A DNA stretch of 64,000 nucleotides from an uncultured Candidatus Saccharibacteria bacterium (GTDB lineage: Bacteria; Patescibacteriota; Minisyncoccia; UBA6257; 1-14-0-10-44-23): contig CAZJVT010000002.1 in NCBI GenBank assembly GCA_964549935.1, forward strand, positions 191,066-255,065, in the 5' to 3' direction. Positions 4,729 to 62,394 of this stretch are shown in pieces (the first letter of the stretch is position 1; each line of letters begins with the position of its first letter). Below the pieces are notes generated by a model. It saw only the letters and a program-made list of their open reading frames with translations, was not told the DNA's origin and made no database searches. Both the position numbers and the translations under genes were made by a program.

Positions 4729-4838
4729 AGCTTGATATAAAAACGACAGAAGCCCGGCCGGTGACATCCTCCCTTTTGGGGAGGAGCACCGAACCGGGCT
4801 TCAACTGCGCGTCGCCTTACGTCGACGCGCGAACGACT

Positions 4839-5387
4839 CTACCAGGCTTCTACGCTGAAGCGCTGGTTCACGGCCCTGACCTGAACGTAGAACGTCCCGG
4901 TCGAAGTCGTATCCCAAGCTATCCCGGCCCGAGCTTCGAATGGGTTGCCGTCCCCATTCTCAAGCAGGACCTGATAGCCCAGGTTGTCCGGCGCTCGAAT
5001 CTTGAAGCGCATGCCGCCGGAGACATGCACTCTGACCCACTGCCCGGGAAGCAGTGCGTCGGGAAACGACTTTTCTCCCGGAGAGTCCAGCGTCACGCTC
5101 GCGACCGGAACTTCCGGCGGAGTGTGCGCTTTCGGTGTGTGACTCGCCGCCACACCGACTGCGGCTTCCTTCTTGACTGCCTGCTCGACCGTGAAGTCGT
5201 GCGGCAGTTCAGGTGCAGTGGGTTTCCGGCTCTGGTAGAGCAGGTAGACCGCCGCGCCAATCAGCGCCCCCCAGAGGAGAAAGTACCTCAAGAGAACGAC
5301 CGCCCCCGGAAACGGGGGTTCCATCCCCTTCGGCAGCCGCCCTGCGGACTCCGCCTCGGGCGTAGCAGCATGTGCGTCGCCGCTCAT
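4839..5387 (-). CDS. Hypothetical membrane-anchored protein (high-GC cassette A, gene 2)
   Basis: 182 aa with one transmembrane helix (VVLLRYFLLWGALIGAAVYLLY); about 65% GC; its start overlaps the stop of the upstream gene by 4 bp, suggesting translational coupling. Confidence 0.55.
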   Translation of the reverse strand: MSGDAHAATPEAESAGRLPKGMEPPFPGAVVLLRYFLLWGALIGAAVYLLYQSRKPTAPELPHDFTVEQAVKKEAAVGVAASHTPKAHTPPEVPVASVTLDSPGEKSFPDALLPGQWVRVHVSGGMRFKIRAPDNLGYQVLLENGDGNPFEARAGIAWDTTSTGTFYVQVRAVNQRFSVEAW

Positions 5388-7216
5388 CGCGTACCTCCTC
5401 TTCTGCCAGCGAGTTCGCGCAGCGTCACGATGACGTCAGCGCCGATGCCGTTCGCGGTCACGATCTCCTCGTGAACATCCCGCTTCACGACACCGTCTTC
5501 GGCCAGGACAGCCTCTCTCGCCTTCTGCTTGATCTCGTCGCTCACTCCTGCGAAGGCAGTGAGCGCCTCCAGGTCCGTCACCTTGTCCGGTGACGCCCAG
5601 CGAGCCATGCGCAGCACCCGATTATTGGTCGTAACCAGGTCGGCGCCGGCCTTGTTCTCGGCTTCCAGTCGCTTGAGATCTTTCTGGATGAGAGCGACCG
5701 AACGAGCAACAAGAATCTCAAGCCACTTCCCGGTGGGCATGAGCTTGGTCAGGTTCAACCGCGTGATGATCACGCCGAAGACCTTGACCTTGATGTGCGC
5801 CCGCCCCTGCTCGAGGGCGTCCGCCATCTGATCCCGCGCCCAGAGGTAAGCCTCGAGGCGCTGGCCAACAAACTGCTTGGCCGCGGCCAGGTCACGGTAT
5901 CCCATCCCGGCCACGACCGCGAGGATCTTGGCCTTGACGGCGTCGATCGTCTTGAAGTCGGATCCCTTGAGATCCTCCTCCTTGACGTCTTCGCGGTGCC
6001 AGAGGCGCACCAGGAACGTCGGTACGCCCGGGACGACCTCCTTGGGCTTCGCCAGGAACTTGCGCTTCGCCTTCGCGACGCGCTTCTCCTCGGCGCGAAC
6101 CTCCACGGGAGTCGTGGGTGCGACAGGCGGGACAGGCGAGACGAACACGAGGTCCGCGCCCAACTCATTCGCACCGAGATGGTGCTCGTGAGCCCAGTGC
6201 GCGATGTGCCCCGTGATGACCGGCCAGAATTGATCCGGATACAGCTCCTTGACGATCGCCAAGGCGCCGCGACGGATTGCTCCGGGGACCTCCTCGCCGT
6301 ACTGCGGCCCGCTTGTGGGCGAGCGCAGCCACCGACGATACGACTCATTGAGCTGGTCGATCAGCTTCGGCAAAACGCCGGCAATGAACCCCTCATGCTT
6401 GAACGGCAAGAGACGGTTCGAGTCAGCCATGATGCCGATGCCCAAGTTGCCCGTGAAGGTGCTGTCCTCCGGGCCGAGAATCGGTTCCTCCTTGGAACCG
6501 ATGCAGGGATTGAAGTCCCCACCACTTACGTCCACCGGCTCCGGCTTGAACAGCCACCAGAGCAGCGGAATGCGAGCGCGACCTTCGAGAGGCTTGATCG
6601 CCGAAAGCATGATCCCGTTGAAGTCCAGGAATGCCTTCGTTTCCGGGTGTGATACCGAAAACCGCGCATACCCCTCGAACTTGTACGCGTCGTACAAGAC
6701 CCAGGAGATGATCGGAGCCGCGACGAGCGCCAGAGGCAACCAAGCCCCCATCGCCAGACACAGCACGATCGCGATTACAGTCCCCACCACGAAGCAAACA
6801 GTCCGAGCCCGCGCGTCGAACTCGGCGAGAATCGGGCCGAACTCCAGATGCGGGATCACGTCGTGGTGACCTCCCCCGCCAGGATGTTCGTCGTCATCGC
6901 CGAGTTCGGCGTGAGCACAGTGCCCCCGCGAACAGTTGATCGCCTCCTGCAGATGCGTGAGTGGTGGCCAGAGCCACCCCATCGCGCGCCCGACGTTGAA
7001 GGACAGCGGTGCGCCGGGCGGCGCAGCCGTACCGCGCATCTGCCACCAGCGAACCAGAGTATAGACGTTCAGCCCGATCGCCACGAAGGCGCCGAGCAGG
7101 CACGCCAGCTTCACCCAGGGATTCATCGTTCCGCGATCGGAGATCGCAGCGTACAACGAGTACGCAGCGCCGACGAACGCAGCGACGAGACCAACGAGCT
7201 TCAGGATTCTACGCAT
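5384..7216 (-). CDS. Hypothetical multi-pass membrane protein with His/Asp-rich loop and C-terminal coiled/SPFH-like region (high-GC cassette A, gene 1)
   Basis: 610 aa; N-terminal transmembrane helices; HAELGDDDEHPGGGGHHD loop; C-terminal region with IKVKVFGVIITRLNLTKL and KDLKRLEAENKAGADL, reminiscent of band-7/SPFH; about 65% GC; spurious antisense ORFs appear across it. Confidence 0.55.
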   Translation of the reverse strand: MRRILKLVGLVAAFVGAAYSLYAAISDRGTMNPWVKLACLLGAFVAIGLNVYTLVRWWQMRGTAAPPGAPLSFNVGRAMGWLWPPLTHLQEAINCSRGHCAHAELGDDDEHPGGGGHHDVIPHLEFGPILAEFDARARTVCFVVGTVIAIVLCLAMGAWLPLALVAAPIISWVLYDAYKFEGYARFSVSHPETKAFLDFNGIMLSAIKPLEGRARIPLLWWLFKPEPVDVSGGDFNPCIGSKEEPILGPEDSTFTGNLGIGIMADSNRLLPFKHEGFIAGVLPKLIDQLNESYRRWLRSPTSGPQYGEEVPGAIRRGALAIVKELYPDQFWPVITGHIAHWAHEHHLGANELGADLVFVSPVPPVAPTTPVEVRAEEKRVAKAKRKFLAKPKEVVPGVPTFLVRLWHREDVKEEDLKGSDFKTIDAVKAKILAVVAGMGYRDLAAAKQFVGQRLEAYLWARDQMADALEQGRAHIKVKVFGVIITRLNLTKLMPTGKWLEILVARSVALIQKDLKRLEAENKAGADLVTTNNRVLRMARWASPDKVTDLEALTAFAGVSDEIKQKAREAVLAEDGVVKRDVHEEIVTANGIGADVIVTLRELAGRRGGTR

Positions 7217-7698
7217 CTCTGTCTCCTCGACCCGCCTATGGCGGGTCAGAATATCTGACCCGCACCGCGGGCCTCGGTTTGGGTCCCGAGACCCTTTACC
7301 CGCGTCACAACAAGTGACGTTAGGGTCCCTCGTCTCCTGCTACCCCGCAATGGGGCAGGCCACGAAACAGGGATTTTGGGATCGATCATCGATTTTCGAC
7401 CCCAAAACTCCTGCTTCGTGCTTCAGAACACGAGAGATCCCTCAAAACCTAAGTTTTAAGGGCTTTTTAGCCCTCCTCCAATGAGGTTAAGGCGCTGTCA
7501 AAGAGCGGTCTTTACTGAACATATAGTATAGCATACTAATACTAATTTGTCAAGTATTAGGCGCTTTTTGCACTTTTTGGTCAATCAGTAAAAATCACGA
7601 ACAAATAAGCTCAAGTTTATCCACTGCCCTGCTCAAAAATAACTTCACGTATGTTATACTGAATGTAACGAATTAATTTTTACTATTAAAAACATCGT

Positions 7699-8046
7699 AT
7701 GAAGAAAACGTTACTCGCTCTTAGCACTATCGCAATGGTCGGACTGACTCCGCTCGCCGCTTTTGCAGTTGATATTCCGGCTACCACACCTGGCCCGGGC
7801 ATCCGCAGCTTCGAAGGCATTCTTAATGTGCTCGACACCGTCATCAACTGGATGTTCACGCTCCTGCTCGTTATGGCAGTAGTTATGATCATTTACGCCG
7901 CGTTTAGCTACTTGACCGCCGGCGGTGACGAGGAGAAGGTTGGCAAGGCGCACAAGGCTATCATCTACGCCGTCGTCGCTATCGCCGTCGCCTTCCTCTC
8001 AAAGGGCATCTCGTTCGTCGTCGCACAGCTTTTGGGGCAAGGATAG
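7699..8046 (+). CDS. TrbC/VirB2-like T4SS-type pilin, paralog 5
   Basis: signal peptide; motif AFSYLTAGGDEEKVGKAHKAIIYAVVAIAVAFL; separated from paralogs 1-4 by the high-GC insert. Confidence 0.6.
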   Translation: MKKTLLALSTIAMVGLTPLAAFAVDIPATTPGPGIRSFEGILNVLDTVINWMFTLLLVMAVVMIIYAAFSYLTAGGDEEKVGKAHKAIIYAVVAIAVAFLSKGISFVVAQLLGQG

Positions 8047-8142
8047 TACGTGTAACGTTAGACGTGAAACTTGCAACTTTCAAAACCGCGACGCCAGTCG
8101 CGGTTTTGATTTTGGGGCGAAAATAAGCGATACTACAACAAT

Positions 8143-8223
8143 GCTGGGGTGGCGAAATGGCAGACGCATCAGCCTTAGGAGCTGAAGCCGCGAGGCATGT
8201 GGGTTCAAGTCCCACCCCCAGCA
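8143..8223 (+). tRNA. tRNA-Leu (anticodon TAG)
   Basis: manual fold: acceptor GCTGGGG/CCCCAGC; anticodon stem TCAGC/GCTGA with loop CTTAGGA; 13-nt variable arm; T-arm GTGGG-TTCAAGT-CCCAC; discriminator A; CCA not encoded. Confidence 0.8.
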
Positions 8224-8371
8224 CAAAAACCAAAACACGGCCTTTAGGTCGTTCTTTGGTTTTTGTGCTTAGATGGACTTGAATCGTCGGACCGGAAATT
8301 TTCAGTATAAAATTTCGGGGAGAGGGTGCCCAGACCAACTGGGCGCGACGGCGCACAGTTGAGTCGAGGGC

Positions 8372-8390
8372 AAGTCCCACCCCCAGCACC
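8372..8390 (+). repeat. 19-bp direct repeat of the tRNA-Leu 3' end (att-like)
   Basis: caagtcccacccccagcac at 8372..8390 matches tRNA positions 8205..8223 exactly; the copy is followed by cca. Confidence 0.6.
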
Positions 8391-8464
8391 AACGAAAAAG
8401 TCCGGTCTTTGCTGGTTCTTTTTTGTCTTTGAGCTGACTAACTGTCGACTGACTAACCGACAAC

Positions 8465-9385
8465 TCATCTCCTCTGCCCGTGAAATTTCTTATGCACATC
8501 TCCTAATTGTTTGTTGGTCAGGTGCGTGTAAATTTGCGTCGTCGAGATATTGCTGTGGCCCAGCAGCTCCTGCACACTGCGCAGGTCGGCGCCATTTACG
8601 AGTAGGTCGGTGGCAAACAAGTGGCGCAGCTTGTGTGGCGTAACGTGCTCCGCGATGCCGGCCTTACGAGTGTAGTAATTAACCAGACGCTGCACAGCGC
8701 GCGGCGTGATCTTACCGATAACTTTTGGCGGTTTTTGCGACTTCTTGGGAACCTTACTTAAACTCACAAACATCCACTCGAGCGCGTCCCCGCGCTTATC
8801 CAAATACTTTTTAATCGTGGCCTTGCAGCTATCTGAAAAAAACACGACGCGCAGCTTCTCTCCCTTGCCGCGCACAGTAATCTCGCCGCGACTTAAGTCG
8901 AGATAACGGCTAAGCCCGCAGAGCTCAGAGACACGCAGCCCGGTTGAAAAAAGCGTCTCTAATACCGCTCGGTCGCGCAGCGCACGCAATCCCTCCCCTT
9001 CGGGTGCGCTCATCAGGCGCTCAAAGTCGCGATACTCCGGGATAGCAATCTGCCTTTGGGCAATCTTTGGTAACTCGATCTTATCGGCAGCTAAGACTTT
9101 ATAATCATGCTTGGCCAGATACTTTAAAAAGCTACGCAGCGCAATGACGTAGTAATTTTGAGTCACCTTTTTCATCGTTCCACCCCGGCCACTATCCATT
9201 GTCGACATTTTTACACGAAATGATTTCACGGCACGCTCGGTAATGTCCGACTCTGACTTAATCCCTGCGTCCTTTAAAAACACCTTGAGATAGTGCTCGT
9301 AGTTGCGCCGTGTTTTAGGCGACCGGCCCTTTTCGACGGTCAGATAGTCTAAGTAGTCTTGCAGGAGCTCCTCAATTTTCGCCAT
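8465..9385 (-). CDS. Tyrosine recombinase, XerC/XerD-family integrase
   Basis: 306 aa; C-terminal catalytic motifs LRHLFATDLLVNGADLRSVQELLGHSNISTTQIYTHL; N-terminal SAM-like domain; lies next to the tRNA-Leu direct repeat. Confidence 0.8.
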   Translation of the reverse strand: MAKIEELLQDYLDYLTVEKGRSPKTRRNYEHYLKVFLKDAGIKSESDITERAVKSFRVKMSTMDSGRGGTMKKVTQNYYVIALRSFLKYLAKHDYKVLAADKIELPKIAQRQIAIPEYRDFERLMSAPEGEGLRALRDRAVLETLFSTGLRVSELCGLSRYLDLSRGEITVRGKGEKLRVVFFSDSCKATIKKYLDKRGDALEWMFVSLSKVPKKSQKPPKVIGKITPRAVQRLVNYYTRKAGIAEHVTPHKLRHLFATDLLVNGADLRSVQELLGHSNISTTQIYTHLTNKQLGDVHKKFHGQRR

Positions 9386-21086: not shown

Positions 21087-21620
21087 CTAAGCTGCAACAA
21101 CCGGCGTGGTCCGATTGTAGAGTTGTTTTAATTTTTCTAATCCGCGATGCACCTGAACAGCCATCGCATTTCTTGTCTGCCCGGTAAGTAATGCCATCTC
21201 TGCGAGCGATAAGTCTTGGATATAACGCATTCGAATCACCTTGCCATACTTTTCCGGCAGCTGCTTAATCAGCTCCATGGCGTCTTTGCCGTCGATTTGG
21301 TCAAAAATATTTCCTGTATTTTTTGCGGCCGGCTCGAAACCTTTCTCGAGTAAACCATCCAGCGAAACTGTTTTACGCTTGCGATACTCGTCAACAATCA
21401 GATTGTTGAGCACGTGGTACAAGAACGCCTTCATAACTTCTATCTTCCCTCCCTTAACTAGGTAGGTCCAGGTTTTTACAAAAGTCTCCTGGACAAGGTC
21501 TCCGCCGAGCGCTTGATCGTGCAGCTTGAAGAATGAGTGCTGATTGAGCGCCTTCTGATGATCGGTGTGCGCCGTGGCCAGCAAAGCGCGCTGCTCTATC
21601 TCCTGTAGGTGATTCATCAT
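21087..21620 (-). CDS. ECF-type RNA polymerase sigma factor (sigma-70 family)
   Basis: region 2 (FVKTWTYLV..VLNNLIVDEYRKRK) and region 4 (IQDLSLAEMALLTGQTRNAMAVQVHRGLEKLK); 177 aa. Confidence 0.75.
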   Translation of the reverse strand: MMNHLQEIEQRALLATAHTDHQKALNQHSFFKLHDQALGGDLVQETFVKTWTYLVKGGKIEVMKAFLYHVLNNLIVDEYRKRKTVSLDGLLEKGFEPAAKNTGNIFDQIDGKDAMELIKQLPEKYGKVIRMRYIQDLSLAEMALLTGQTRNAMAVQVHRGLEKLKQLYNRTTPVVAA

Positions 21621-38114: not shown

Positions 38115-38187
38115 CAGCAAGTAAAAAAATATTATCTTAAAACCACCTCGCCCTCGGATCCGAAGACCCGAGGGCGAGAGTGCGGCG

Positions 38188-38451
38188 TCAGTTGCCGTTC
38201 CAGTTACGCGGAAATCGCTTCTTGACCCTTACGACCGAGACGCGCGTTCGTCCTCCTGGCAGCGTGCCCTTGGCGTCGAACTGCCGGATTCCCGCGGAAA
38301 CGGCCAGCGTAATGCCGGAGCGCTCGCCCACGAGGTCCACGATCAGACCGCCAGGCTTCACTCCTGCTTCGAGAGCGCCCCACCCTTCGCCGTAGCGACG
38401 AAGTTGCTCTGCTCCCTCTCTGGAGATGTACACCTTAGGCAGGTCTGTCAT
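38188..38451 (-). CDS. Hypothetical small protein (high-GC cassette B)
   Basis: 87 aa; about 62% GC; AGGAGG ribosome-binding site 5 nt upstream of the ATG; flanked by a GC-rich hairpin ctcgccctcgg..ccgagggcgag. Confidence 0.45.
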   Translation of the reverse strand: MTDLPKVYISREGAEQLRRYGEGWGALEAGVKPGGLIVDLVGERSGITLAVSAGIRQFDAKGTLPGGRTRVSVVRVKKRFPRNWNGN

Positions 38452-38558
38452 CGGCTCCTCCTGGTTTTGTGACGCATTGGCAGAATACTAAAATAAGCAG
38501 ACTGCGTCAATAAATTTGATATTTTATCGATTTTCTGGTATTTTTAGTACATTCTGAT

Positions 38559-41936: not shown

Positions 41937-42001
41937 CGTTGCGCTCCGGCCAGGCTTTTGGTAGGGTCAGGGAGTCCCTGGGCACCGACAAGGAGGTCAC
42001 G

Positions 42002-42754
42002 TTGCGCGTTATCAAGAAAGGCCCGCTGCTTCGAGTCGCCGCAGTGGCGACCGGCGGCGGATCAACCGTGAAGGCGGTCCTCGAGCAGTGTCTCCCCGGC
42101 GGTAGACTGCACGGCCTCGTGGAGGTCGCAGTCATCGTCGGGACCAGGCCTGGCATCGAGGCGCTGGAACGCCCGAAGCAGGTCGTCGGAATGGAACACG
42201 TCCCGACTCGCGTTGTCGAGCGCAAGCTCGGCACGAAGACGGAGGTCCGGTTCGGCAAAGAGCTGATGAAGGTCTTCAATCAGTTCGACGTCGACATGTT
42301 CGCGCTCCTGGGATGCATCCCGACGATCCCAGGAAACGTCCTGGAAAAGTTCGTCGGAACCAACCAGCACCCTGCCCCACCGCAGCGCTTCGGCGGGAAG
42401 GGCTGGCACGGCATCCTGCCCTACGCTGCACAGCTCTACTACGTCCAGGACCTGGGTGCCAAGCACCCTGCGATCGTGGTGTCGCAGTGGGTCGCACCCG
42501 AAGTGGACGGTGGCAGCGTGATCCACTACGGGGAGGTCCCCATCCTCGACGGGGACACCCCGGAAGCGCTCCGCGACCGAGGACTGCCTGTCGAATGGGC
42601 GGTTCAGGTCGAGACGCTTCGGCGTCTCGCGACGGACACGGCCGAAGAAACGCCGTGCCCCTACAGTTGCACCCCGATGTCAGGAACCCGGGCGGGGGTC
42701 GCACTCGAGAATGCCAAGGCGCGTGCCTTGGCCGAGTACGGCCACCACAAGTAA
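42002..42754 (+). CDS. Formyltransferase-family protein (PurN/Fmt-like), high-GC cassette C
   Basis: VAAVATGGGSTVKAVLEQ plus NQHPAPPQRFGGKGWHGI resemble the PurN GS-N-LQAL and N-HPSLLP-F-G motifs; about 65% GC; AAGGAGG ribosome-binding site then TTG at 42002 (the ORF track opens at 41939, 2 bp after the alaX stop). Confidence 0.5.
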   Translation: MRVIKKGPLLRVAAVATGGGSTVKAVLEQCLPGGRLHGLVEVAVIVGTRPGIEALERPKQVVGMEHVPTRVVERKLGTKTEVRFGKELMKVFNQFDVDMFALLGCIPTIPGNVLEKFVGTNQHPAPPQRFGGKGWHGILPYAAQLYYVQDLGAKHPAIVVSQWVAPEVDGGSVIHYGEVPILDGDTPEALRDRGLPVEWAVQVETLRRLATDTAEETPCPYSCTPMSGTRAGVALENAKARALAEYGHHK

Positions 42755-42823
42755 CGGAGGAGAGCCTCGAGCTCCGGGGCGCCGACAGGCGCCCCGGAGA
42801 CTCACTTCAAAAAGATTTAAACA

Positions 42824-42856
42824 CAAAACCCGCCTTTCGGCGGGTTTTGTGTTTTC
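42824..42856. terminator. Bidirectional Rho-independent terminator
   Basis: aaacccgcc-tttc-ggcgggttttgtgtttt. Confidence 0.65.
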
Positions 42857-44832: not shown

Positions 44833-47073
44833 CTAGCTCCACTCTTCAACCATCAAAAGCTCGCTCTTGCCGGGCCAAGTGGGCAGCTTGCTCCAAATCT
44901 CTTCGGTGACGTAAGGCATAAACGGGTGCAGCATCTTTAAGCACTCCTCAAAGACCTTCGTGAGCGTGGTGGCGGCCATATCCCTGTCTCCTTCGTCGGC
45001 ACCGGCCAGACGGGTTTTGTACTCCTCGATAAGCTTGTCAGCCACGGTGTGCCAGGTGTAGTGGTAGGCCGCCTCGGAGGCCAGGTGGAGCTTATACTCG
45101 TCTAAATCGCGAGCGACCTCGGCCTTCACTTTTTCGAGCTCGTGCAGTACCTCCTGGTCGCGGGCGGTTACGCCGGCGTTTGGATCAACCGAGTCGGTGT
45201 ACTGCAGAATGAACTTACCCATATTCCAGAGCTTAGTCGTAAAGTTGCGGTAGCCGCGGATTTTGTCTTCAGAAATAACCGGGTCGGTGCCGGCGGCGTT
45301 ACCGGAGACAAGCGCCATACGCACCGCGTCGGTACCGTACTCAGCAGAAACGCCGAGCGGGTCGATGACGTTGCCTTTGGACTTACTCATCTTTTGGCGT
45401 TCTTTGTCGCGCACGAGTCCGTGCAAATAGACCGTCTTAAACGGCACGCGACCAGTGCGGTAAATGCCCAGCATCGTCATGCGTGCCACCCAGAAGAACA
45501 AAATGTCCCAGCCGGTCTCCATGACGTCGGTCGGGTAAAACGAATCAAAATCACGCGAGACGGTTCCCATGCTCGTACCCTGCACGTGCTTTTTGCCTTC
45601 GGCATTGGCCGAAGCCATCAGCGTCGCAAACGGCCACTGGCCAGAACTAAACCAGGTATCAAACACGTCGGTCTCCGGCTCCCAGCCAATACCGTCTGGC
45701 TTCTGCTCGCCGACGTGAATCTGCTCACCCTTGTACCAGACCGGAATGCGGATACCCCACACTATCTGACGGCTGACGTTCCAGTCGCGCAGGTTTTCCA
45801 TCCAGCGAAGAAACTCAGTTTTAAAGCGATCGCTCACAAAACTAACCTCCCCTTTCTCGACTGCTGCGACAGCTAAATCACGCAGCGACTTACCAAGACG
45901 ATTGCTCGGCTTCGTCATAGCCACAAACCACTGCGGACGAATCTGCGGTTCAATCGCGGTATTACATTTGTAACAAACCGGCACGGCGTGCTTGCGCTGC
46001 TCGACGTTAACAAGTAGCCCTTTTTTGTTAAGCTTTTCGACGATAAGCGCGCGTGCCTTGCTGATGTGCTGCCCGGTAAACTCGCCAGCGATTGGCAGTA
46101 ACTTGCCCTGCCAGTCGATAATCTGCTCCTTCGGCAGATTGTGCCGCTGCGCGATTTCAAAGTCGGCGGCACTGTGCCAGGGCGTAATCGTCATCGCGCC
46201 GGTACCGAGCTCCATATCCATTGCCGCGTCCTTAATGAGGGTTGCTCGAATCGGGCCATTAATCCATTCCAGTTCAAATTCCTGGCCGTCTTTGTACTGC
46301 GCGTAGCGCTCATCGTCCGGATGCACCACGACGTACTTATCGCCAAACTTAGTCTCTGGGCGCGCAGTCGCAATAGTAAAAGGACCGTACTTGAGATAAT
46401 AAAACGGATCGGTCACCTCCGGCTGGGCGATTTCGAGTTCAGAGAGCGAGGTTTGGTGGCGAGCGCACCAGTTGATGATGCGGCTGCCACGGTAAATAAG
46501 GCCGTCGTCATAGAGCATCTTAAACGTCTCGTATACCACGCCGCGGATATCGTCATCTAAAGTAAACTTTTCGCGTGACCAGTCACACGAGGCACCGAGT
46601 GCGCGAATTTGACCTTCCATGTGAGCCTTGTTGGCGATAGTAAAATCTTTGATCTCCCCGTAGAGCTGATCGCGCGGAATCTCCCAAAACTTCCTCCCCT
46701 CCTTCTCCAACTTCTTTGTATACACCACCTGCGTTTCGAACCCGGCGTGATCGGCACCCGGAAGCCAAAGCGTCTTAAAGCCGCGCATACGCTTGTAGCG
46801 GATCATAATGTCCTGCGTGGTCACAAACAGCGCGTGCCCGATGTGTAGTGAGCCGTTCGCATTTGGCGGCGGCATGATAATCGTGAAACGTGGAGCGTCT
46901 GACGTGTAACGTTCAGAGGGCAGATTGTCCGGATTAAAGTAACCCGAATCCTCCCACTTTTGGTAGATTTCCGGCTCACGGTCCTTATATTCAAAATGCT
47001 TCGGGAGTTCCATGGCAGTAGATAGTGATGAGGCAATTTTAGCGGAAAATCGTTGGTTTTTATATATTGACAA
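44833..47073 (-). CDS. valS: Valine--tRNA ligase (short form)
   Basis: class I HIGH region PPPNANGSLHIGHAL, KMSKS region KMSKSKGNVIDP, ValRS-type TWFSSGQWPF; 746 aa; the true start may be the internal Met at 47013. Confidence 0.8.
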   Translation of the reverse strand: MSIYKNQRFSAKIASSLSTAMELPKHFEYKDREPEIYQKWEDSGYFNPDNLPSERYTSDAPRFTIIMPPPNANGSLHIGHALFVTTQDIMIRYKRMRGFKTLWLPGADHAGFETQVVYTKKLEKEGRKFWEIPRDQLYGEIKDFTIANKAHMEGQIRALGASCDWSREKFTLDDDIRGVVYETFKMLYDDGLIYRGSRIINWCARHQTSLSELEIAQPEVTDPFYYLKYGPFTIATARPETKFGDKYVVVHPDDERYAQYKDGQEFELEWINGPIRATLIKDAAMDMELGTGAMTITPWHSAADFEIAQRHNLPKEQIIDWQGKLLPIAGEFTGQHISKARALIVEKLNKKGLLVNVEQRKHAVPVCYKCNTAIEPQIRPQWFVAMTKPSNRLGKSLRDLAVAAVEKGEVSFVSDRFKTEFLRWMENLRDWNVSRQIVWGIRIPVWYKGEQIHVGEQKPDGIGWEPETDVFDTWFSSGQWPFATLMASANAEGKKHVQGTSMGTVSRDFDSFYPTDVMETGWDILFFWVARMTMLGIYRTGRVPFKTVYLHGLVRDKERQKMSKSKGNVIDPLGVSAEYGTDAVRMALVSGNAAGTDPVISEDKIRGYRNFTTKLWNMGKFILQYTDSVDPNAGVTARDQEVLHELEKVKAEVARDLDEYKLHLASEAAYHYTWHTVADKLIEEYKTRLAGADEGDRDMAATTLTKVFEECLKMLHPFMPYVTEEIWSKLPTWPGKSELLMVEEWS

Positions 47074-47167
47074 AGATAGTTTTTTTAATTAAAATACTTT
47101 CACGCGTTTTCGACGCGCCACCAAACTTCTCGCGACAACGCGATCGAAGCAACGAAGGGAGCCCTGA

Positions 47168-47527
47168 ATGCGTAACGGAAAGAAAGTCGTCCTGCACGTC
47201 GAGGACAAACTCCTGTATCAGGATCTGCTCGCGGCAGATCTTCGACGGTTCGCCGAGGTGATCAGGGCGTCATCAATCATCGAGGCGGAGGCCAAGTTCG
47301 CGGCCAACCAGGGCGTGATCGACGTCATCGTGATGGACGCCTGCGTCCCAGGCGAGACGCCAAACACGCTGCCCCTCGTGGCGCTCATCCGGCAGACCTT
47401 CAAGGGGCCGATGATCGCCTCCTCCGGTTTCCCCGGGTTCAGGAAGGACCTGATGGCTGTCGGATGTGACTCTGAATCTCCCAAGGAGGAGGTCGGAGCG
47501 GCAGTCCTCAGCGCTCTCGGCCTGTGA
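47168..47527 (+). CDS. Stand-alone receiver (REC/CheY-like) domain protein, high-GC cassette D
   Basis: KKVVLHVEDKLLYQDLL ... VIDVIVMDACVPGETP ... LPLVALIRQTF; about 62% GC; AAGGGAG ribosome-binding site; GC-rich terminator hairpins abut the tsaD stop. Confidence 0.55.
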   Translation: MRNGKKVVLHVEDKLLYQDLLAADLRRFAEVIRASSIIEAEAKFAANQGVIDVIVMDACVPGETPNTLPLVALIRQTFKGPMIASSGFPGFRKDLMAVGCDSESPKEEVGAAVLSALGL

Positions 47528-52692: not shown

Positions 52693-52835
52693 TGATTGAG
52701 AGAGTATACACGAGAGCTAAAAAAGTGTCAACAGGAATCGAATAAGGAATAATGAATTAGGAATTAGGTTACAAACAACAGAGGCGGCACGGGACGTGCC
52801 GTCCTGTTGCCGCCCCAAGATGCTGAGCCGAAGTC

Positions 52836-53336
52836 CTACAACTGGCGGATCCGAATCGCGACGCCGAAGCAGATCGCAAGTCCGAACATGAGCGATGCCA
52901 GCGACAGCACAGGCTTACGGCTTACGCGGTCGTGCACCCAGTCGTGCCAGACATAGTCGACCAGCCTGTACCCGATTCCTGCCTGCACGATGAGCGCCGA
53001 CACGAGCACGATGGCTTCTTCGAGGTTCGGCATACGCTTCTCGTGCCAGGCGGCCCAGAGGGCCACGATGAACATGATGTAGCCTACGGGCATCATGAGC
53101 ACCCGGAACGTAGCGAAGAACTGCTCTCTGTGCTCCGCGACCTGGTGCTGGGTGAGCAGCAAGATCTCGAATCCCAGCAGCACGAACAGCATCGAGACGT
53201 TCTGCGCAACGAGCGCGCAGGCGGCGGCCAGAGCCACCATCCCGATGAAGTGCATCCAGTTACGCAGAAACACGTGCAGCGCCGAGACGTGCTTCACGTC
53301 AACGATGATCGGCCTACCGTCAATTTCAACCTGCAT
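52836..53336 (-). CDS. Hypothetical 4-transmembrane-helix membrane protein (high-GC cassette E)
   Basis: 166 aa; about 61% GC; AAGGGAG ribosome-binding site; GC-rich hairpin downstream (52780..52820); host-type AT palindrome upstream. Confidence 0.5.
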   Translation of the reverse strand: MQVEIDGRPIIVDVKHVSALHVFLRNWMHFIGMVALAAACALVAQNVSMLFVLLGFEILLLTQHQVAEHREQFFATFRVLMMPVGYIMFIVALWAAWHEKRMPNLEEAIVLVSALIVQAGIGYRLVDYVWHDWVHDRVSRKPVLSLASLMFGLAICFGVAIRIRQL

Positions 53337-53389
53337 CTCCCTTGCCCTCCCCTTGAAAGCCAGACGCCGCCGGACCTCCCGACGAACGG

Positions 53390-53418
53390 AAAATAATATA
53401 TCACATATGATATATTTT
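53390..53418. repeat. AT-rich palindrome AAAATAATATATCACATATGATATATTTT (copy 2)
   Basis: near-identical to the 36150..36177 palindrome; about 55 bp upstream of the cassette E start. Confidence 0.7.
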
Positions 53419-53494
53419 GTCCAATCGTAAAAAGACCCTTTAGCAGTCGGGCCTCTCCCTACGTTACACGCTACACGTTTTACATTAAACGAAT

Positions 53495-56409: not shown

Positions 56410-56441
56410 ATACTATCTCTATCAACAATACACCTTTACCT

Positions 56442-58406
56442 ATGCTTCTTAAAATATCACGCTTCTGCCTCATCGCCTCGCTTGCAGCCGTCCTGCTCGT
56501 AAACAAATCATTCTTTTTCCCGTTCATTACCGGCAAACAGGTTTTCTTCCGCTTCTGGGTTGAGCTTGCACTCGCCTTTTTTATTTTCCATCTCATTCGA
56601 GCTCTCCTCGCGAAACACCAATCTCATGCCCGTGAAACCTTAAAGGCAATAAGTAGACACCTCAAACACCCAATTGTGATTTGTTTGGCGATTCTTGGTA
56701 TCGCGCTCATTATCAGCGCGGTATTTAGCCCGACACCGAGCATGGCCTTCTGGTCAAACTATGAACGTGGCGATGGAACATTCCAGATTTTGCACTACAT
56801 ACTATTTGCAATCTTGCTCAAGCTACTCTTCGTTGACGACAAAAAATGGCACCAGCTCCTTGCCGCAAACATCATCATCAGCATCCCGGTGTGTTTTTAC
56901 GCCTTTGGCCAAATGTTCTCTAGCCCAAACTCGACAACGTTTGTCGCCGCCGGCAGCCGCGTGTCCGGCACGCTCGGCAACCCCTCCTACCTGGCCGCTT
57001 ACCTGATTTTCAATCTCGCTTTTATAACCTACTTCCTCCTGAAATCAAAAGACTCCTTCGTACGCCTGGGGTTGATTATGCTTGGCGCGGTACAAATTTT
57101 CCTAATGATCAAAGCTCAAACGCTTGGTGCCGCACTTGGAGTTTTCGTGGGTCTCGTCGTCTTCGCCGTACACCTCACATTCACGACTGATAATAAAAAA
57201 ATCTACAAAGCAGGACTTGCGGTCGGTGGTTTTGTTTTAGGACTTTCGCTACTGTTTATCGGGACCAGACAGTTTTCTTTCTGGCAACACATCCCCCTCT
57301 TCAACCGCATCACGGATATTAGCAAGGCATATGAAAACATCCAGCCACGCCTTTGGACGTGGAGCTCAGCGGTAAGCGGCGTTGCCGACCGGCCGCTGAC
57401 CGGCTGGGGTCCGGAAAATTTTGCAATCCCTTTTGACAGGCACTATGACCCGCTGCACTACGGGCAAGAGTCATTCTTCGATCGTACACACAACGTCTTT
57501 CTGCAATACCTCATCGACGGAGGCGTCCTTGCCTTCATCCCTTGGCTACTACTTTTCTATTTTTACTACCGTGGACTTCGTAAACGCGAGGCTTCAATAT
57601 GGAAAAGCGTGCTTATTGCTTTACCGGTTATGTACTTAGTCCAGGGCTTCTTCCTCTTTGACGTGCTGGCTATCTATCTTCCATTTTTTGTTCTGTTACT
57701 ATTCGCCATAAACACTAATCCCCCGCCAGATGACCGCCCGGCGCTTCCGGAGACACTACACGATATAACTCCTTTCTCCTACGTACTCATTGCGGCAACC
57801 GGCGTTGTCTTTTGCGTGCTCATCTACAAAACGGCCTATGCTCCCCTGCACCGCAACCGAATGATTATTGGCGCGCTCAACGATGGAGGCCAGCTCATTG
57901 CTGAACTGACAACCAAACACGAGGGCGGATTAAGCAAATCGCCTTCTGATGTATTTAACGAGCTGCATGCCGCTATTGAATATCCGTCACCAATCGGTCG
58001 CGGCGAGGCTGTCGAAATGTATCAAAAGTTCGCAGTTGATTTTCTCGGCTTGATGGCACAGGTTCCTGACGCTGCAAAAAATAAAAATATCCGAAACGAT
58101 GTTGCGACCATCATGACTGACCTCAATGCGACGATGGACAATAACGCGGGGCTAGTACCCGGCGTTAAAGATCGTTACGTTAATGCAACAGTTAATATTC
58201 GCGCTGGCGCTATTTTCAACATACCGGAATATATTCAGCGCGGCAGGAAAATGATCGAAGACGATCTTGCGGCGGCACCGAAGCGAATCGAACTAGTGAA
58301 AGTCCTGCTTGATCTTGGCGCGGCGACCAACGACAAGGCTCTTCTGGCAACATGGCAACCGGTTGCGGCGCAGCTTCGCCCGGACCTGTTCCGCGCAACG
58401 AAGTAG
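56442..58406 (+). CDS. O-antigen-ligase/Wzy-like polytopic membrane protein with C-terminal soluble domain
   Basis: about 12 transmembrane helices in the first 430 aa, then a 220-aa soluble tail; 654 aa. Confidence 0.4.
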   Translation: MLLKISRFCLIASLAAVLLVNKSFFFPFITGKQVFFRFWVELALAFFIFHLIRALLAKHQSHARETLKAISRHLKHPIVICLAILGIALIISAVFSPTPSMAFWSNYERGDGTFQILHYILFAILLKLLFVDDKKWHQLLAANIIISIPVCFYAFGQMFSSPNSTTFVAAGSRVSGTLGNPSYLAAYLIFNLAFITYFLLKSKDSFVRLGLIMLGAVQIFLMIKAQTLGAALGVFVGLVVFAVHLTFTTDNKKIYKAGLAVGGFVLGLSLLFIGTRQFSFWQHIPLFNRITDISKAYENIQPRLWTWSSAVSGVADRPLTGWGPENFAIPFDRHYDPLHYGQESFFDRTHNVFLQYLIDGGVLAFIPWLLLFYFYYRGLRKREASIWKSVLIALPVMYLVQGFFLFDVLAIYLPFFVLLLFAINTNPPPDDRPALPETLHDITPFSYVLIAATGVVFCVLIYKTAYAPLHRNRMIIGALNDGGQLIAELTTKHEGGLSKSPSDVFNELHAAIEYPSPIGRGEAVEMYQKFAVDFLGLMAQVPDAAKNKNIRNDVATIMTDLNATMDNNAGLVPGVKDRYVNATVNIRAGAIFNIPEYIQRGRKMIEDDLAAAPKRIELVKVLLDLGAATNDKALLATWQPVAAQLRPDLFRATK

Positions 58407-59224: not shown

Positions 59225-61921
59225 CTAAGCGACGCTGATCACCGGCTTGGCGTTACTAAATGCGATCTTCACCTTGTCTCCGTCTTTAATCTGACCGCGA
59301 ATCATTTTATCGGCCATGGCGTCTAAGATTGTTTTTTGAATCAACCGAGCAATCGGGCGTGCACCAAAGTCCGGATCAAATCCGTGTTCGACGATGTAAT
59401 CGCGGGCCGAGGCGTCGATAGCGACGTTGATACTGCGCTTCGCAAGCTTTTCTTTAATCAAAGCGAGCTGGATGTCGACGATTTTTTCGATATCCGTGCG
59501 GCGCAGACCGTTAAAGACGATGATTTCGTCAATGCGGTTTAAGAACTCCGGTTTAAAGCTGCTCTTGAGAGAGTCCTTCACGCGGTCCTTGAAACTCTCC
59601 TCTTGGCGGTCTATTTCTTTTTTCGCGCTCGTGCTAAAACCAAGCGTCGCCATATCCTTGAAGTAGTGGCTGCCGACGTTGCTCGTCAGAATAATGATCG
59701 TGTTCTTGAAGTTAACCGTTTTGCCGTGCGCATCAGTGAGACGACCATTGTCTAAGATTTGCAGCAATACATTGAACACCTCCGGGTGCGCCTTTTCAAT
59801 CTCATCAAACAGGATGAGGCTATACGGACGATGACGGATTGTTTCAGTGAGCTGTCCTCCCTCTTCGAAGCCGACGTAGCCCGGCGGGCTGCCAATAAGA
59901 CGGGAGACCGCGTGCTTTTCCATATACTCGCTCATATCCACGCGCACAATTGCCTTCTCGTCGTTAAACATCAAGCCGGCGAGACTACGGGCAAGCTCGG
60001 TTTTACCAACACCGGTCGGACCAAGGAACATAAAGCTGCCCAGCGGTCTGTCTTCGTGCGCAAGTCCAGCACGGGCGCGACGCAAAGCACCGGCAACGGC
60101 GGTAACCGCTTCGTCCTGGCCGACAACACGCTGATGCAACACCTCTTCAAGCTTAAGCATCTTCTCGGTATCACTTTCAAGCATCTTGGTAATCGGAATA
60201 CCGGTCCAGCGCGCAACGACGGCGGCGATGTCCTCTTCGTCGACGACCTCTTTAACAAAGGTCTCACCACTCACGCGCTTTTTCTTTTTTACATCAGCAT
60301 CCTCGCTGAAGTGCTTGTTTTCAAACGCCTTATACTCCTTTTCAGACTGCGGAAGCTCGCCATACAAAATCTGAGCAACGCGCTCCAGGTCTCCTCCGCG
60401 CTCCGCCTTCTCGGCTTCTTTCTTGAGCTGATCAATCCGCTTACGAAGATTGTGAAAGTTTTCAAGCGTCATCGTCTCGGCGCGCCACGAACCGGAGAGG
60501 TCGTCGTTACGCAACTTGAGCTTAGTAAGCTCGGTCTCAATCTCGGCTAAGCGCTTTTCCGGGCCGGTTGCCTTAACCGCCTTACTCTTGCGCTTCGTCG
60601 GTGTCACCTCGTTTGTTAATGCCTTTTTCTCGATTTCCAGACGCGTAATTTCGCGGCGAATCTTTTCTATTTCCGCCGGTGTACTCTCGGTCTCCATCTT
60701 TAAAGCCGCAGCCGCCTCGTCGATTAAATCAACGGCCTTGTCGGGTAGAAAGCGGTCGGTAATGTAGCGAGTCGACAAATTAACTGCAGCCACAATCGCC
60801 CGGTCGCTGATACGCAGCCCGTGGTGAATCTCATACTTTTCTTTGAGGCCGCGCAAAATCGAGATTGAATCCTCGATAGACGGCTCCTCTACCATAATCG
60901 GTGCAAAGCGGCGCTCAAGCGCTGAATCTTTTTCGATGTGCCGCTGATACTCACGAATCGTGGTCGCACCAATCGCGTGCAACTCACCGCGCGCCAAAGC
61001 CGGCTTTAAAAGATTCGAAGCATCGATAGCACCTTCGGCGGCACCGGCGCCGACAATCATATGAATCTCGTCGATAAACAAAATAATGCGGCCGGCGGAG
61101 TTTTGAACCTCCTTAATAAACGCTTTCAAGCGGTCTTCGAACTCGCCGCGGAACTTTGTGCCGGCGATCAGGCTACCCAAGTCGAGCGAAAGCACCTCCT
61201 TGCCTTTCAAAGTCTCCGGAACCTCTCCGGCGATAATCTTTTGCGCGAGGCCTTCAACGATGGCTGTTTTACCAACACCCGGTTCACCGATTAAGACCGG
61301 ATTATTCTTTGTGCGACGCGAAAGCACCTGAATCACGCGGCGCAGCTCCTCTTCGCGGCCGATAACCGGGTCGAGCTTCCCCTCCTTCGCCTTGGTTGTT
61401 AAATTCACGGCGTACTTTTCTAAAACCTGGAACTTACTCTCTGGTGTTTCATCCGTAACCCGCGTGCTGCCGCGTAGCTGTGCGAGGATTTTGATAAGCG
61501 CATCACGACGAACCCCGGCGCGCTCCAAAATAGCGCGGGCAGTCGTATCAACCTCCAACATCGCGAGTAACAAATGTTCACAAGAGACGAACTCGTCCTT
61601 CTGCGTGGCGGCAATTTTAGCGGCCTTCTCCAAAAGTCCCATCAGCTCCTGACTTAAGTAAAGCTGTCCGACGCCGCTGCCAAAAATCTTCGGCATCTCC
61701 TGCAACATCCGACGAACCTCGGCATCCAGCGCCTGGACATCGATGCCGGTTTTTTCAAGCATCGGGACAACCAGCGACTGCTGATCGTTTATCAGCGAAA
61801 CAAGTAAATGGATAGCCTTAAACTCACCGTGGTTATAGCTCCCGGCGAGTTCCTGGGCATTCTGAAGCGCCTCCTGCGCCTTTACAGTAAATCGATTGAA
61901 ATTCTTGTTATTCATTGCCAT
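59225..61921 (-). CDS. clpB: ATP-dependent chaperone ClpB
   Basis: N-domain, two AAA+ modules ([15 protein letters not shown]; [15 protein letters not shown]) separated by a long coiled-coil M-domain; 898 aa. Confidence 0.9.
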
Positions 61922-62013
61922 ATAGTGAGATTATACCATCCGTGTCAATAGTTTCTGCCGCGGGCACGCCACCGAATGATGGCGCGCCCGCAACAGTTGC
62001 GGCGGAGGTCGGA

Positions 62014-62337
62014 CTACAGTTCCTCGATGGCCAAGATGATCCGGGCGATCACCTCTTCTTTCGTGACCTCTCGAGTCCGCCCGTGCTGCCTGTGTGACTT
62101 CAGGGCAACGTGACCGTTGAATCCCGGGAAGTCGAGAACGCCTGCCGCACCCTCGAACATCCGAAGCTTCGGGCTTTCAGCAATCCTGAGTGCGGTCTGT
62201 CCGTCCTTGCAGACCAGGCCGATATCCAGGATGTTGCCGGCGATGATCTGGGCGGAAAGCACGACATCGTACCCTTGCTCACTGATCAGTCGCAGATACT
62301 GCTGCCAGCTAGGCTGGCTTCTTTTCACGACCTTCAT
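62014..62337 (-). CDS. Hypothetical small protein, possibly degenerate receiver-like (high-GC cassette F)
   Basis: 107 aa; about 58% GC; AAGGAGGTG ribosome-binding site directly upstream of the ATG. Confidence 0.4.
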   Translation of the reverse strand: MKVVKRSQPSWQQYLRLISEQGYDVVLSAQIIAGNILDIGLVCKDGQTALRIAESPKLRMFEGAAGVLDFPGFNGHVALKSHRQHGRTREVTKEEVIARIILAIEEL

Positions 62338-62394
62338 TGCGCACCTCCTTGTGCCGCGTTATATTAACACAGGAAACTGTTTTTGTCCAGAGCG

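Follow-up and report, generated by a model that had tools for sequence, protein, structure and literature searches.

Phage morons are stand-alone promoter-gene-terminator units that have inserted between conserved genes (Cumby, Davidson & Maxwell 2012, PMC3594210). Hotspots of horizontal gene transfer (HGT), defined within species, are a small number of core-bounded intervals that hold accessory genes and turn over rapidly; many have no integrase, suggesting homologous recombination mediated by the flanks (Oliveira et al. 2017, PMC5635113).

Six GC-rich blocks, A to F, are dispersed over 57 kb of the window (the whole 64,000-nucleotide stretch analysed here), each with its own promoter-like site. 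Like phage morons, they are units of one or two genes that have a promoter and a terminator of their own (here predicted), differ in GC content from their neighbours, hold diverse cargo that is mostly without assigned function, are extra DNA where related genomes have adjoining genes (compared for B to E), and have neither a mobility gene nor a target duplication. Unlike morons, these cassettes lie in the core chromosome of a member of the Patescibacteria (candidate phyla radiation, CPR) rather than in phage or prophage DNA; their GC content exceeds that of the host, their predicted translation-initiation mode differs from the host's, and they keep one composition across host lineages. As in HGT hotspots, the same core-bounded interval is refilled in different genomes, and by unrelated families. 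The differences are that these slots persist among hosts at 72-83% ValRS identity, the cargo is single-gene, the -35 region and terminator hairpin are kept while the coding sequence changes, and cargo composition is uniform across hosts. We read the blocks as moron-like accessory islets in conserved hotspot slots, belonging to a family-wide, compositionally coherent pool foreign to the core, and we give this reading an even chance of being right.

Bacteria usually carry foreign DNA that is richer in AT, not in GC, than their own. The sequence-only reading had described jumps to higher GC content in this window, and we recovered the steps where it had placed them. At the gene level, GC is 0.58-0.65 and GC3 0.69-0.84 for the seven ORFs in the six blocks; the backbone has a GC of about 0.52, and its 59 genes a GC3 of 0.43-0.73. 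Synonymous codon use is shifted in the cassettes for every amino acid. Moreover, the encoded proteins are richer in Gly, Ala, Arg and Pro (combined fraction 0.32 versus 0.26 for the backbone) and favour arginine over lysine (R/(R+K) 0.57 versus 0.41), and cassette leaders and terminators have GC 0.56-0.78 versus 0.46 for backbone non-coding DNA. The compositional shift is segment-wide, not just a matter of codons.

The cassettes share one dinucleotide signature across hosts. Block A and the pooled blocks B-F differ by a delta* of 0.042, whereas either set differs from the backbone by 0.14-0.17 and backbone differs from backbone by 0.071. Between the window cassettes and those of six other host lineages delta* is 0.039; between cassettes and every host backbone (seven lineages including the window) it is 0.14-0.19. 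The pool has about 60-65% GC, is depleted in TA and is enriched in GA/TC.

Translation signals divide along the same line. A strong Shine-Dalgarno (SD) site precedes all seven cassette genes (predicted anti-SD duplex dG <= -7.9 kcal/mol), and a 5-nt SD core precedes six of the seven versus none of 59 backbone genes (Fisher p ~4e-7). When the whole window was scanned blind, no true gene start with a strong SD turned up beyond the cassette genes. Many backbone genes have leaderless-looking starts, a signature confined to the backbone. The earlier picture of SD-led cassettes in an SD-poor backbone thus stands (7/7 versus 0/59 genes), and the SD-led versus leaderless dichotomy separates cassettes from core. 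The spacing claimed with it, AAGGAGG or AAGGGAG 5-8 nt before each start, does not hold throughout: every gene is SD-led, but the AAGGGAG of E abuts the ATG, and its functional SD is GGGGAGGG, 8-9 nt upstream. The units would be translated through SD/anti-SD pairing, and core mRNAs would start leaderless.

All six blocks have the same layout (Table 1): an AT-rich predicted sigma-70-type promoter, a GC-rich leader with an SD, one or more ORFs and a GC-rich hairpin. The switch from AT-rich to GC-rich DNA falls 0-12 nt past the predicted -10 box in 6/6 blocks. Judged from these signals, each block appears to be an autonomous transcription unit of one or two ORFs with its own predicted promoter and terminator. 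GC-rich hairpins concentrate in the blocks (4 of 10 lie within this 8.6% of the window, p = 0.008) but also occur outside them, which qualifies the first description. Blocks B and F are the weakest of the six.

Table 1. Predicted features of the six blocks (window positions; aa, amino acids)
Block	Feature	Positions	Strand	Composition or basis
A	Promoter-like site TTGACA-17-TATACT, in AT-rich DNA	7525..7553	-	motif scan and sequence
A	GC-rich leader, ~300 nt, highly structured, ending in SD GAGGAG (7223-7228)	7217..7518	-	
A	A2, 610-aa orphan protein, hydrophobic segments at N-terminus	5384..7216	-	GC 0.63, GC3 0.79
A	A1, 182-aa protein, one hydrophobic segment; start overlaps A2 stop	4839..5387	-	
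A	3' region: long imperfect GC hairpin (4749-4802), then T-run	4735..4838	-	
B	Promoter-like site TTGACG-17-TATTCT; -35 region conserved with relative L006	38482..38510	-	
B	Leader with SD AGGAGGAG (38455-38462) and 87-aa ORF (38188-38451)	38188..38481	-	
B	Predicted terminator: 15-bp GC stem and T-run	38136..38179	-	
C	Promoter-like site TTGCGC-17-TAGGGT (41939-41967) and leader, SD AAGGAGG (41990-41996)	41939..42001	+	
C	250-aa formyltransferase-fold protein, TTG start	42002..42754	+	
C	Own GC hairpin: 12 bp, no T-run	42772..42799	+	arm GC 0.92
D	Promoter-like site TTGACA-17-TAAAAT (47067-47095, overlaps valS start) and GC-rich leader, SD AAGGGAG (47155-47161)	47067..47167	+	
D	119-aa orphan protein	47168..47527	+	
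D	GC-rich 3' region, imperfect hairpins, ends at tsaD stop codon	47528..47597	+	
E	Promoter-like site TGGACA-17-TATATT (53395-53423) and GC-rich leader, SD GGGGAGGG (53345-53352)	53337..53423	-	
E	166-aa orphan protein, about four hydrophobic segments	52836..53336	-	GC3 0.84
E	3' region: GC hairpin (52785-52801) and T-rich tail	52775..52835	-	
F	Promoter-like site TGGACA-17-TAATAT (62361-62389) and short leader, SD AAGGAGG (62344-62350)	62338..62389	-	
F	107-aa orphan protein	62014..62337	-	
F	3' region with GC hairpin (61961-61990)	61950..62013	-	

Every block sits in an intergenic gap, as the sequence-only reading had seen. The GC-rich DNA of C begins directly after the alaX stop, the 3' region of D abuts the tsaD stop, and A lies inside an array of type IV secretion system (T4SS) pilin paralogs (PF18895). 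Their neighbours are core housekeeping genes (ribosomal-protein genes, infA/infB, tsaD, valS, clpB); the 746-aa neighbour of D is ValRS, a correction to the earlier annotation. Backbone terminators lie close by: one (4706-4728) adjoins the 3' region of A, and a bidirectional one (42819-42854) lies downstream of the C hairpin.

Could the blocks be high-GC pieces of foreign origin that assembly or binning joined into a CPR contig? The composition changes are abrupt and some per-run contigs stop at cassette edges. However, Logan assemblies of SRR14271331/32/36, made independently for each run, cross both junctions of B, C, E and F (for F in the order htrA-F-clpB) and the valS-D junction of D, in up to three runs. 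The five blocks are not chimeric, because independent per-run assemblies span these junctions, which answers the concern about junctions raised with the first description. The same architecture recurs in unrelated assemblies of relatives from other studies, and the insertions fall exactly in intergenic gaps with functional-looking signals. An artefact is already refuted for B, C, D, E and F, and its overall probability is negligible.

The cargo is largely orphan. A2 found only itself among 5.8 billion and 1.84 billion proteins, the latter representatives including assemblies of the runs that contain this genome, and it has no Pfam, NCBIfam, PADLOC or PHROG match. Its leader has a minimum free energy of -154 kcal/mol (z = -9.2, none of 200 shuffles equally stable) and matches no Rfam family; A1 has its own SD, GAGGAGG, at 5394-5400. 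C starts at TTG 42002, not at 41939 as first annotated. It had been called a PurN-like formyltransferase: the Formyl_trans_N domain is present (PF00551, 47.9 bits, gathering cutoff 26.1), but the PurN equivalog score of 46.6 bits is below the cutoff of 150 (150.1). D and F had been called receiver-like, an assignment that the searches do not support; a CheY-like fold for D is tentative. Neither matches Pfam or NCBIfam, the best PDB match of D is a receiver domain at a weak E = 0.31 (structure model pLDDT 39.8), and F has no receiver match in the PDB search. The coding status of B is the least certain of the seven because its codon periodicity is poor (GC1 0.66, GC2 0.51, GC3 0.69).

The slots are conserved and their occupancy varies. 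Core gene order is common to the relatives, which share only 72-83% ValRS identity. The gaps compared (upstream of infB, between tsaD and valS, and beside a 158-aa gene) are empty, hold an ortholog (46-49% identity) or hold an unrelated GC-rich, SD-led gene, so the same slots are found empty, with orthologs or with unrelated genes of the same composition in sibling genomes, the comparison first suggested as a check. Between tsaD and valS, three of seven genomes are filled: by D in the window, by an unrelated 135-aa gene in L006 and by a lysozyme-like gene in L086. The gap is only 8-48 bp in L007, L167, L168 and the contig of the 83%-identical ValRS P0013, where it is empty. The gap between a 550-aa gene and infA is 90 bp in L168. 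C is missing from L167 and L168 and among relatives has an ortholog only in L006, at the syntenic site (47-49% identity), where its element CTTTTGsTAGGGTCAGrGAGTCC is the same at 21 of 23 positions; E is missing from L007 and L168. An all-against-all comparison of occupants found no similarity except for two orthologous pairs. Intergenic sites shared with relatives have undergone gain, loss and replacement.

The slot upstream of infB is filled in all five relatives examined, with four unrelated genes among lineages. In no reading frame does the B gene resemble the one occupying this slot in L006 and L168. Nevertheless, the 28-nt hairpin of B recurs there, with 2 mismatches in L168 and 3 in L006: the -35 region and terminator are kept in the window, L006 and L168 while the coding sequence is swapped.

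Compositionally atypical HGT genes, in the model of Lawrence and Ochman, reportedly undergo amelioration. Like such genes, the cassettes have an atypical GC content, codon usage and dinucleotide signature confined to accessory genes. Unlike them, orthologous cassettes in diverged hosts are unameliorated: C and a B-type gene are as saturated at synonymous sites as core genes, and still have GC3 0.64-0.80 in hosts whose backbone GC3 is 0.45-0.60. Simple acquisition followed by amelioration does not predict this; continuing influx or active maintenance is required.

Maintenance could mean that the cassettes are ancient resident genes without ongoing transfer, their GC-rich, SD-led character actively upheld and their patchiness due to differential loss. 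RNA selection (for stability, structure or SD-dependent regulated translation) or GC-biased gene conversion are possible causes. The saturated orthologs at the same slots fit this, as do the coincidence of GC block and predicted transcript in 6/6 cassettes, the same signature in all host lineages and the failure to find an external donor; moreover, GC-outlier genes in other CPR loci are about five times more often SD-led. However, non-homologous genes occupy the same slot, so loss alone is insufficient. That amino-acid use and non-coding DNA are shifted as well speaks against selection at the codon level, conversion tracts would not leave compositional boundaries this sharp, and the kynureninase, PurN-like, Mu Gam and lysozyme families are atypical for CPR cores. 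We consider residence without transfer a serious competitor, though somewhat unlikely.

A high-GC organism living alongside, for instance an actinobacterium that hosts the epibiont, might have donated genes recently and repeatedly. Such transfer would explain why GC1/GC2/GC3, amino-acid use, SD leaders, hairpins without T-runs and the TAGGGT -10 box resemble those of a genome of about 63% GC. Rhodococcus is qualitatively alike (TA 0.47, GA/TC 1.27, GC 0.90). Its delta* to the cassettes, in a sample of one actinobacterial replicon and one actinophage, is 0.11, far above the cassette-to-cassette value of 0.04 and no better than Ensifer (0.10) or high-GC CPR loci (0.09). A2 has no homolog even in assemblies of the same sequencing runs, the sole homology-search match of C has 32% identity and lies on a 39% GC contig, and nothing on plasmids is more than 46% identical to the kynureninase of a relative's cassette. 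No closest homolog was actinobacterial at high identity. On these comparisons the pool source is not a sampled actinobacterium, and the actinobacterial donor first suggested, as speculation, is not supported. Nor does recent acquisition agree with the age of the orthologous cassettes or with slot borders conserved across relatives, and we regard such transfer as highly improbable. Searches for a donor or reservoir found none: phage, plasmid and viral collections were uninformative, no cassette relatives occurred in viral contigs, and PHROG gave no match apart from a weak formyltransferase one. Because the corresponding gaps of relatives are occupied by other genes with this same unusual composition, the cassettes form a swappable accessory set, not a recent borrowing from a known host. 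Of the two readings first offered, the second, in which dispersed accessory genes have distinct signals for their expression, comes closer, and the foreign-type composition and own expression signals support a distinct set of this kind.

How might units enter and leave? Like integron cassettes, they are small, mostly single-ORF and swappable, with an imperfect terminal hairpin. A dedicated site-specific system, integron-like or hairpin-targeted, would account for the GC hairpin at the end of every unit and for the terminator retained at the infB slot; tyrosine recombinases lie about 1 kb from A and beside the kynU cassette of L006, and a 25-nt direct repeat stands on both sides of the slot-B cassette of L006. 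However, the window has a single tyrosine recombinase, of Xer type (integron-integrase TIGR02249, 112 bits versus a cutoff of 265), no 3' end has attC cores (GTTRRRY, RYYYAAC), cassette ends share no 10-mer except the SD, and the window has no flanking repeats. Unlike integron cassettes, with their IntI, attI, Pc and attC consensus, the units are dispersed with their own promoters and do not form a promoterless array. We judge a site-specific system very unlikely.

Under the preferred reading, moron-like islets in hotspot slots, the core would be the syntenic, largely leaderless, SD-free genome of a Patescibacteria lineage in which units occupy a few slots, and pool members would be gained, lost and replaced there. 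DNA would be taken up, and units would then enter or be exchanged through recombination close to or at the conserved borders of the slots. We can only infer this recombination step because the cassettes are linked by no recombination machinery or end signature that we could find: no integrase, target-site duplication or shared end motif.

A bolder reading, which we think quite unlikely, is that a clade within the CPR keeps a long-lived, dedicated cassette system in which SD-translated, GC-rich units are exchanged among fixed slots and their composition is kept actively distinct from that of the leaderless core. The slots would then be "expression slots" with conserved promoter and hairpin elements at their borders. 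Candidate causes are transcript- or hairpin-based mobilisation, or tuning to a different expression context, for example a host cell contacted by the epibiont through its type IV secretion system. If true, the genome would have two tiers, each with its own translation-initiation regime.

Two initiation modes would coexist in this genome, and the leaderless/SD-led split tracks the core/accessory split. If general, a strong SD, high GC3 and a TA-depleted signature would give a simple core-versus-accessory rule for at least one CPR clade. The cargo, mostly orphan membrane or secreted proteins, provides candidates for host-interaction functions. The evolutionary puzzle is that accessory genes of diverged hosts keep one non-host composition despite synonymous saturation. 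Its solution could reveal an unsampled GC-rich reservoir that feeds ultra-small bacteria, which bears on their partners, or alternatively a new process that maintains composition or mobilises cassettes.

A 400-nt profile of the window, whose mean GC content is 51.8%, steps up to 0.60–0.68 at six places, which confirms the GC jumps that a sequence-only reading had located at cassette blocks A to F. The seven open reading frames (ORFs) of these blocks have a GC content of 0.58–0.65 and a GC content at third codon positions (GC3) of 0.69–0.84; GC3 is 0.43–0.73 in the 59 remaining core-type genes, the backbone. The claimed difference in start signals is also real. Every cassette ORF (7 of 7) has a Shine-Dalgarno (SD) sequence with a predicted anti-SD duplex energy of −7.9 kcal/mol or lower, whereas a 5-nt SD core precedes 0 of 59 backbone genes (Fisher p about 4e-7). 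Indeed, a blind scan for SD core, spacer, start and ORF on both strands of the window returned these seven ORFs, and no others, as true gene starts led by a strong SD. One further 100-aa ORF (GC 0.42) has AGGAG 7 nt upstream of its ATG; it lies across a divergent promoter region and is probably no real gene.

The composition shift of the cassettes is not confined to codons. G/C-ending codons are favoured for every amino acid, Gly, Ala, Arg and Pro together make up 0.32 of residues versus 0.26 in the backbone, and R/(R+K) is 0.57 versus 0.41. Moreover, cassette leaders and 3' regions have a GC content of 0.56–0.78, compared with 0.46 for backbone non-coding DNA. A copper/heavy-metal cluster in the window (HMA protein, P-type ATPase, HMA-DsbD_2 protein and cupredoxin) has backbone composition.

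The backbone looks different at its gene starts. A strict −10 box (TAYAMT) ends 4–9 nt before the start in 9 of 59 backbone genes, compared with 1% of control ATGs (p = 6e-9), and the looser TANNNT, seen at 0 of 7 cassette genes, is found at 20 of the 59 in the backbone. The position of these boxes, several of them TATACT or TATAAT, suggests that many core mRNAs are probably leaderless. The anti-SD is kept outside a subgroup of Parcubacteria (PMC9297842).

The six blocks share a layout. Oriented by gene, each has an AT-rich sigma-70-type promoter-like site, a GC-rich leader with the SD, the ORF or ORFs and a GC-rich hairpin. The switch from AT to GC falls 0–12 nt past the −10 hexamer in all six, and the block ends at the hairpin, so that the compositional island equals the predicted transcript. 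In cassette A the leader is exceptionally structured and packed with GC hairpins (MFE −154 kcal/mol, z = −9.2). No Rfam family matches it, and it could act in regulation or as a non-coding RNA. Five VirB2/TrbC-like pilin paralogs of type IV secretion (PF18895) form an array, and cassette A sits between the fourth and fifth.

Positions in the window of the cassette ORFs, their promoter-like sites and other features
Feature	Position	Strand	Detail
A1	4839-5387	-	182 aa
A2	5384-7216	-	610 aa
B	38188-38451	-	87 aa
C	42002-42754	+	250 aa
D	47168-47527	+	119 aa
E	52836-53336	-	166 aa
F	62014-62337	-	107 aa
Block A promoter-like site	7553-7525		TTGACA-17-TATACT
Block B promoter-like site	38510-38482		TTGACG-17-TATTCT
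Block C promoter-like site	41939-41967		TTGCGC-17-TAGGGT
Block D promoter-like site	47067-47095		TTGACA-17-TAAAAT
Block E promoter-like site	53423-53395		TGGACA-17-TATATT
Block F promoter-like site	62389-62361		TGGACA-17-TAATAT
Cassette A leader	7217-7518	-	~300 nt
Pilin paralog array	3055-4679, 7699-8046
tRNA-Leu(tag) final 18 nt	8207-8224
Exact repeat of tRNA-Leu 18-mer	8372-8389		165 nt downstream
Xer-type recombinase gene	8465-9385	-	TATACT/TATAAT box at start
Backbone gene	12721-14271		TATACT/TATAAT box at start
Backbone gene	19187-20914		TATACT/TATAAT box at start
Backbone gene	43570-43983		TATACT/TATAAT box at start
Backbone gene	59225-61921		TATACT/TATAAT box at start
Copper/heavy-metal cluster	29597-33662
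100-aa ORF, probably spurious	56294-56596	-	GC 0.42

The blocks are hardly products of faulty assembly or binning. The window lies within a 266,666-bp NCBI contig, and in independent per-run Logan assemblies (SRR14271331, -32 and -36) contigs cross the junctions on either side of B, C, E and F, as well as the one between valS and D; the chimera that the sequence-only reading had raised as a concern is ruled out at these junctions. Several per-run contigs (among L003, 912 bp; L002, 1363 bp; and L174) stop at or just past cassette edges, which could fit strain-level presence or absence of cassettes, or simply coverage.

Relatives were retrieved with ValRS, the 746-aa neighbour of D, and gene starts in the close ones were called manually, as longest-ORF calling errs on strand and start in GC-rich DNA. 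They share the core order infA - rpsM...rpsI - tsaD - valS - prsW - hsp20 - 160-aa gene - (nudix) - rbfA - infB, and the gaps between these conserved genes serve as slots that are either empty or occupied. The tsaD|valS slot holds D in the window, an unrelated SD-led 135-aa gene (GC 0.59) in opposite orientation in contig L006, and in L086 an SD-led gene for a destabilase-type lysozyme with a signal peptide (GC 0.64, 1185-1670); the gap is merely 8–48 bp in L007, L167, L168 and the P0013 contig (83% ValRS). Neither L007 nor L168 has anything in slot E. Slot C of L006 holds an ortholog of C (47–49% amino-acid identity) with matching architecture: the promoter/leader element CTTTTGsTAGGGTCAGrGAGTCC is more conserved than the coding sequence, and the backbone terminator 3' of the slot is identical. 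C is absent from L167, L168, L007 and the P0013 contig. Among siblings, C has its ortholog in L006, and other slots are empty or hold different genes.

The slot upstream of infB is filled in all relatives examined, always by a GC-rich, SD-led gene. The occupant is B (87 aa) in the window, and L006 and L168 share an orthologous gene of 143-147 aa (46% identity); L167 has an unrelated gene of 180 aa, and in L007 a gene of 145 aa lies in inverted orientation. A 28-nt terminator hairpin is common to the window, L006 and L168 (0–3 mismatches), and the −35 region to the window and L006. We can reject the idea that B decayed from the 143-147-aa gene: the leader and coding sequence of B resemble that gene in no reading frame, and beyond the flanks the DNA aligns no better than at random. 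The borders of this slot have been kept while its content was exchanged. Directly upstream of infB, CTAAAAATACCAGA is conserved in the window (38534-38547), L006 (21307-21320) and L167 (12125-12138), where it may serve infB as a promoter or regulatory element. The L006 cassette at this slot is bracketed by a 24-of-25-nt direct repeat, AGATTTTGyCGGTTTTAGCAAATTT (21318-21342 and 21905-21929), which has no equivalent in the window.

Other slots hold further GC-rich, SD-led genes, for an acyltransferase, a Mu Gam-like protein (7926-8504) and an 89-aa protein in L167, and for a kynureninase in L006 (6187-7503); a slot of the P0013 contig carries a LAGLIDADG endonuclease. The endonuclease, the Gam-like protein, the lysozyme and the kynureninase are unusual for core genomes of the candidate phyla radiation (CPR).

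Could a site-specific system move the cassettes between defined slots? We consider this improbable. In the window, no direct repeats or target-site duplications flank the cassettes and their ends share no motif except the SD. The sole recombinase is Xer-type, not an integron integrase, and an integron-like system is rejected. Next to its gene, the 3' end of tRNA-Leu(tag) is repeated exactly; two copies of this 18-mer occurred in 0 of 100 shuffles. The repeat looks like the att-like scar left by an integrative element unrelated to the cassettes.

The cassettes also share a dinucleotide signature. We compared them by delta*, the distance between dinucleotide relative abundances, in which base composition is normalised out. 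Block A lies 0.042 from pooled B–F, either lies 0.14–0.17 from backbone chunks, and these chunks average 0.071 among themselves. TA is depleted in cassettes (0.4 versus 0.81 in backbone), GA/TC is enriched (1.31 versus 0.99), and the GC-dinucleotide excess of the backbone is missing. Pooled cassettes of L006, L007, L086, L087, L167 and L168 (7.9 kb) lie only 0.039 from those of the window, whereas the backbones measured, those of L006, L007, L167 and L168, lie at 0.14–0.19. Every high-GC reference is farther from the cassettes than they are from one another: the closest is at 0.086, with Ensifer at 0.10, Rhodococcus at 0.11, Streptomyces phage phiC31 at 0.12, Deinococcus and Ralstonia at 0.14, and high-GC CPR loci at 0.09–0.14. 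The signature is thus partly a generic high-GC effect; its coherence across hosts is not. High-GC CPR were rejected as SD-using donors, since SD use is low in CPR loci at every GC level. SD-led starts are about 5 times as common among GC-outlier genes of CPR loci, a figure confounded by G-richness and based on crude ORF calls.

Homology searches point to no donor. A2 is an orphan that matched only itself among 5.8 billion sequences (word-index) and 1.84 billion representatives (exhaustive HMMER); in the same protein database C matched only itself and one further protein, 32% identical, on a 39% GC contig. This database misses some CPR genomes (the 47% C ortholog of L006 was absent from the results), and it includes assemblies of runs holding this genome. 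These gave no second A2 homolog, so a co-resident donor of A2 is unlikely. Direct transfer from an actinobacterial host, which the sequence-only reading had floated, fares badly against the lack of A2 homologs and the solitary match of C, and we regard it as very unlikely; Rhodococcus, the one actinobacterial replicon sampled for the signature, is no closer than high-GC CPR loci. Nor did a phage or plasmid source emerge: in a tblastn search of 50,697 phages all matches were generic (formyltransferase, Gam and kynU-like, at 24–35% identity), IMG/VR was negative for cassette relatives, and the only plasmid match was kynU, at 46% identity or less. Only C belongs to a family: its Formyl_trans_N domain bears out a formyltransferase, but the score is far below the PurN cut-off. 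D and F have no assigned family to confirm their earlier receiver label. A1, A2 and E contain hydrophobic segments. Among the cassette proteins PADLOC matched no defence cargo, and a PHROG search gave nothing useful.

How old are the cassettes? As a measure we took codon identity at residues conserved between orthologs minus the identity that codon usage by itself would give. This excess comes to +0.04 for C (window and L006) and +0.01 for the B-type gene (L168 and L006), near the −0.06 to +0.16 of flanking core genes, so the cassette orthologs are as saturated as the core; these two genes give no indication of having spread recently from one lineage to another. Nevertheless, GC3 of C is 0.80 in both hosts, against backbones of about 0.59 and about 0.52, and that of the B-type gene is 0.78 in L168, against about 0.45. 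Simple acquisition by horizontal gene transfer (HGT) followed by amelioration does not predict GC3 that lasts despite saturation. Perhaps each host received its own copy, at one and the same slot, from a GC-rich and so far unsampled reservoir with already diverged members. Alternatively, some process may hold cassette transcripts GC-rich. The main rival explanation, which we think rather doubtful, is of this kind: the cassettes would be resident genes kept at their composition by an active process.

As units the cassettes fit the definition of phage morons (PMC3594210) in all but context, and their distribution is like that of HGT hotspots on chromosomes, where turnover is rapid (PMC5635113). 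We therefore favour the view that they are moron-like accessory islets occupying conserved hotspot slots, drawn from a coherent GC-rich pool and SD-translated in an otherwise leaderless genome, and judge the chances of this reading to be about even. HGT and genomic islands are widespread in Patescibacteria (PMC12455944); our literature search found no published description of the cassette pattern. It is above all the common, non-host composition of the cassettes, and its persistence, that makes the finding of interest.
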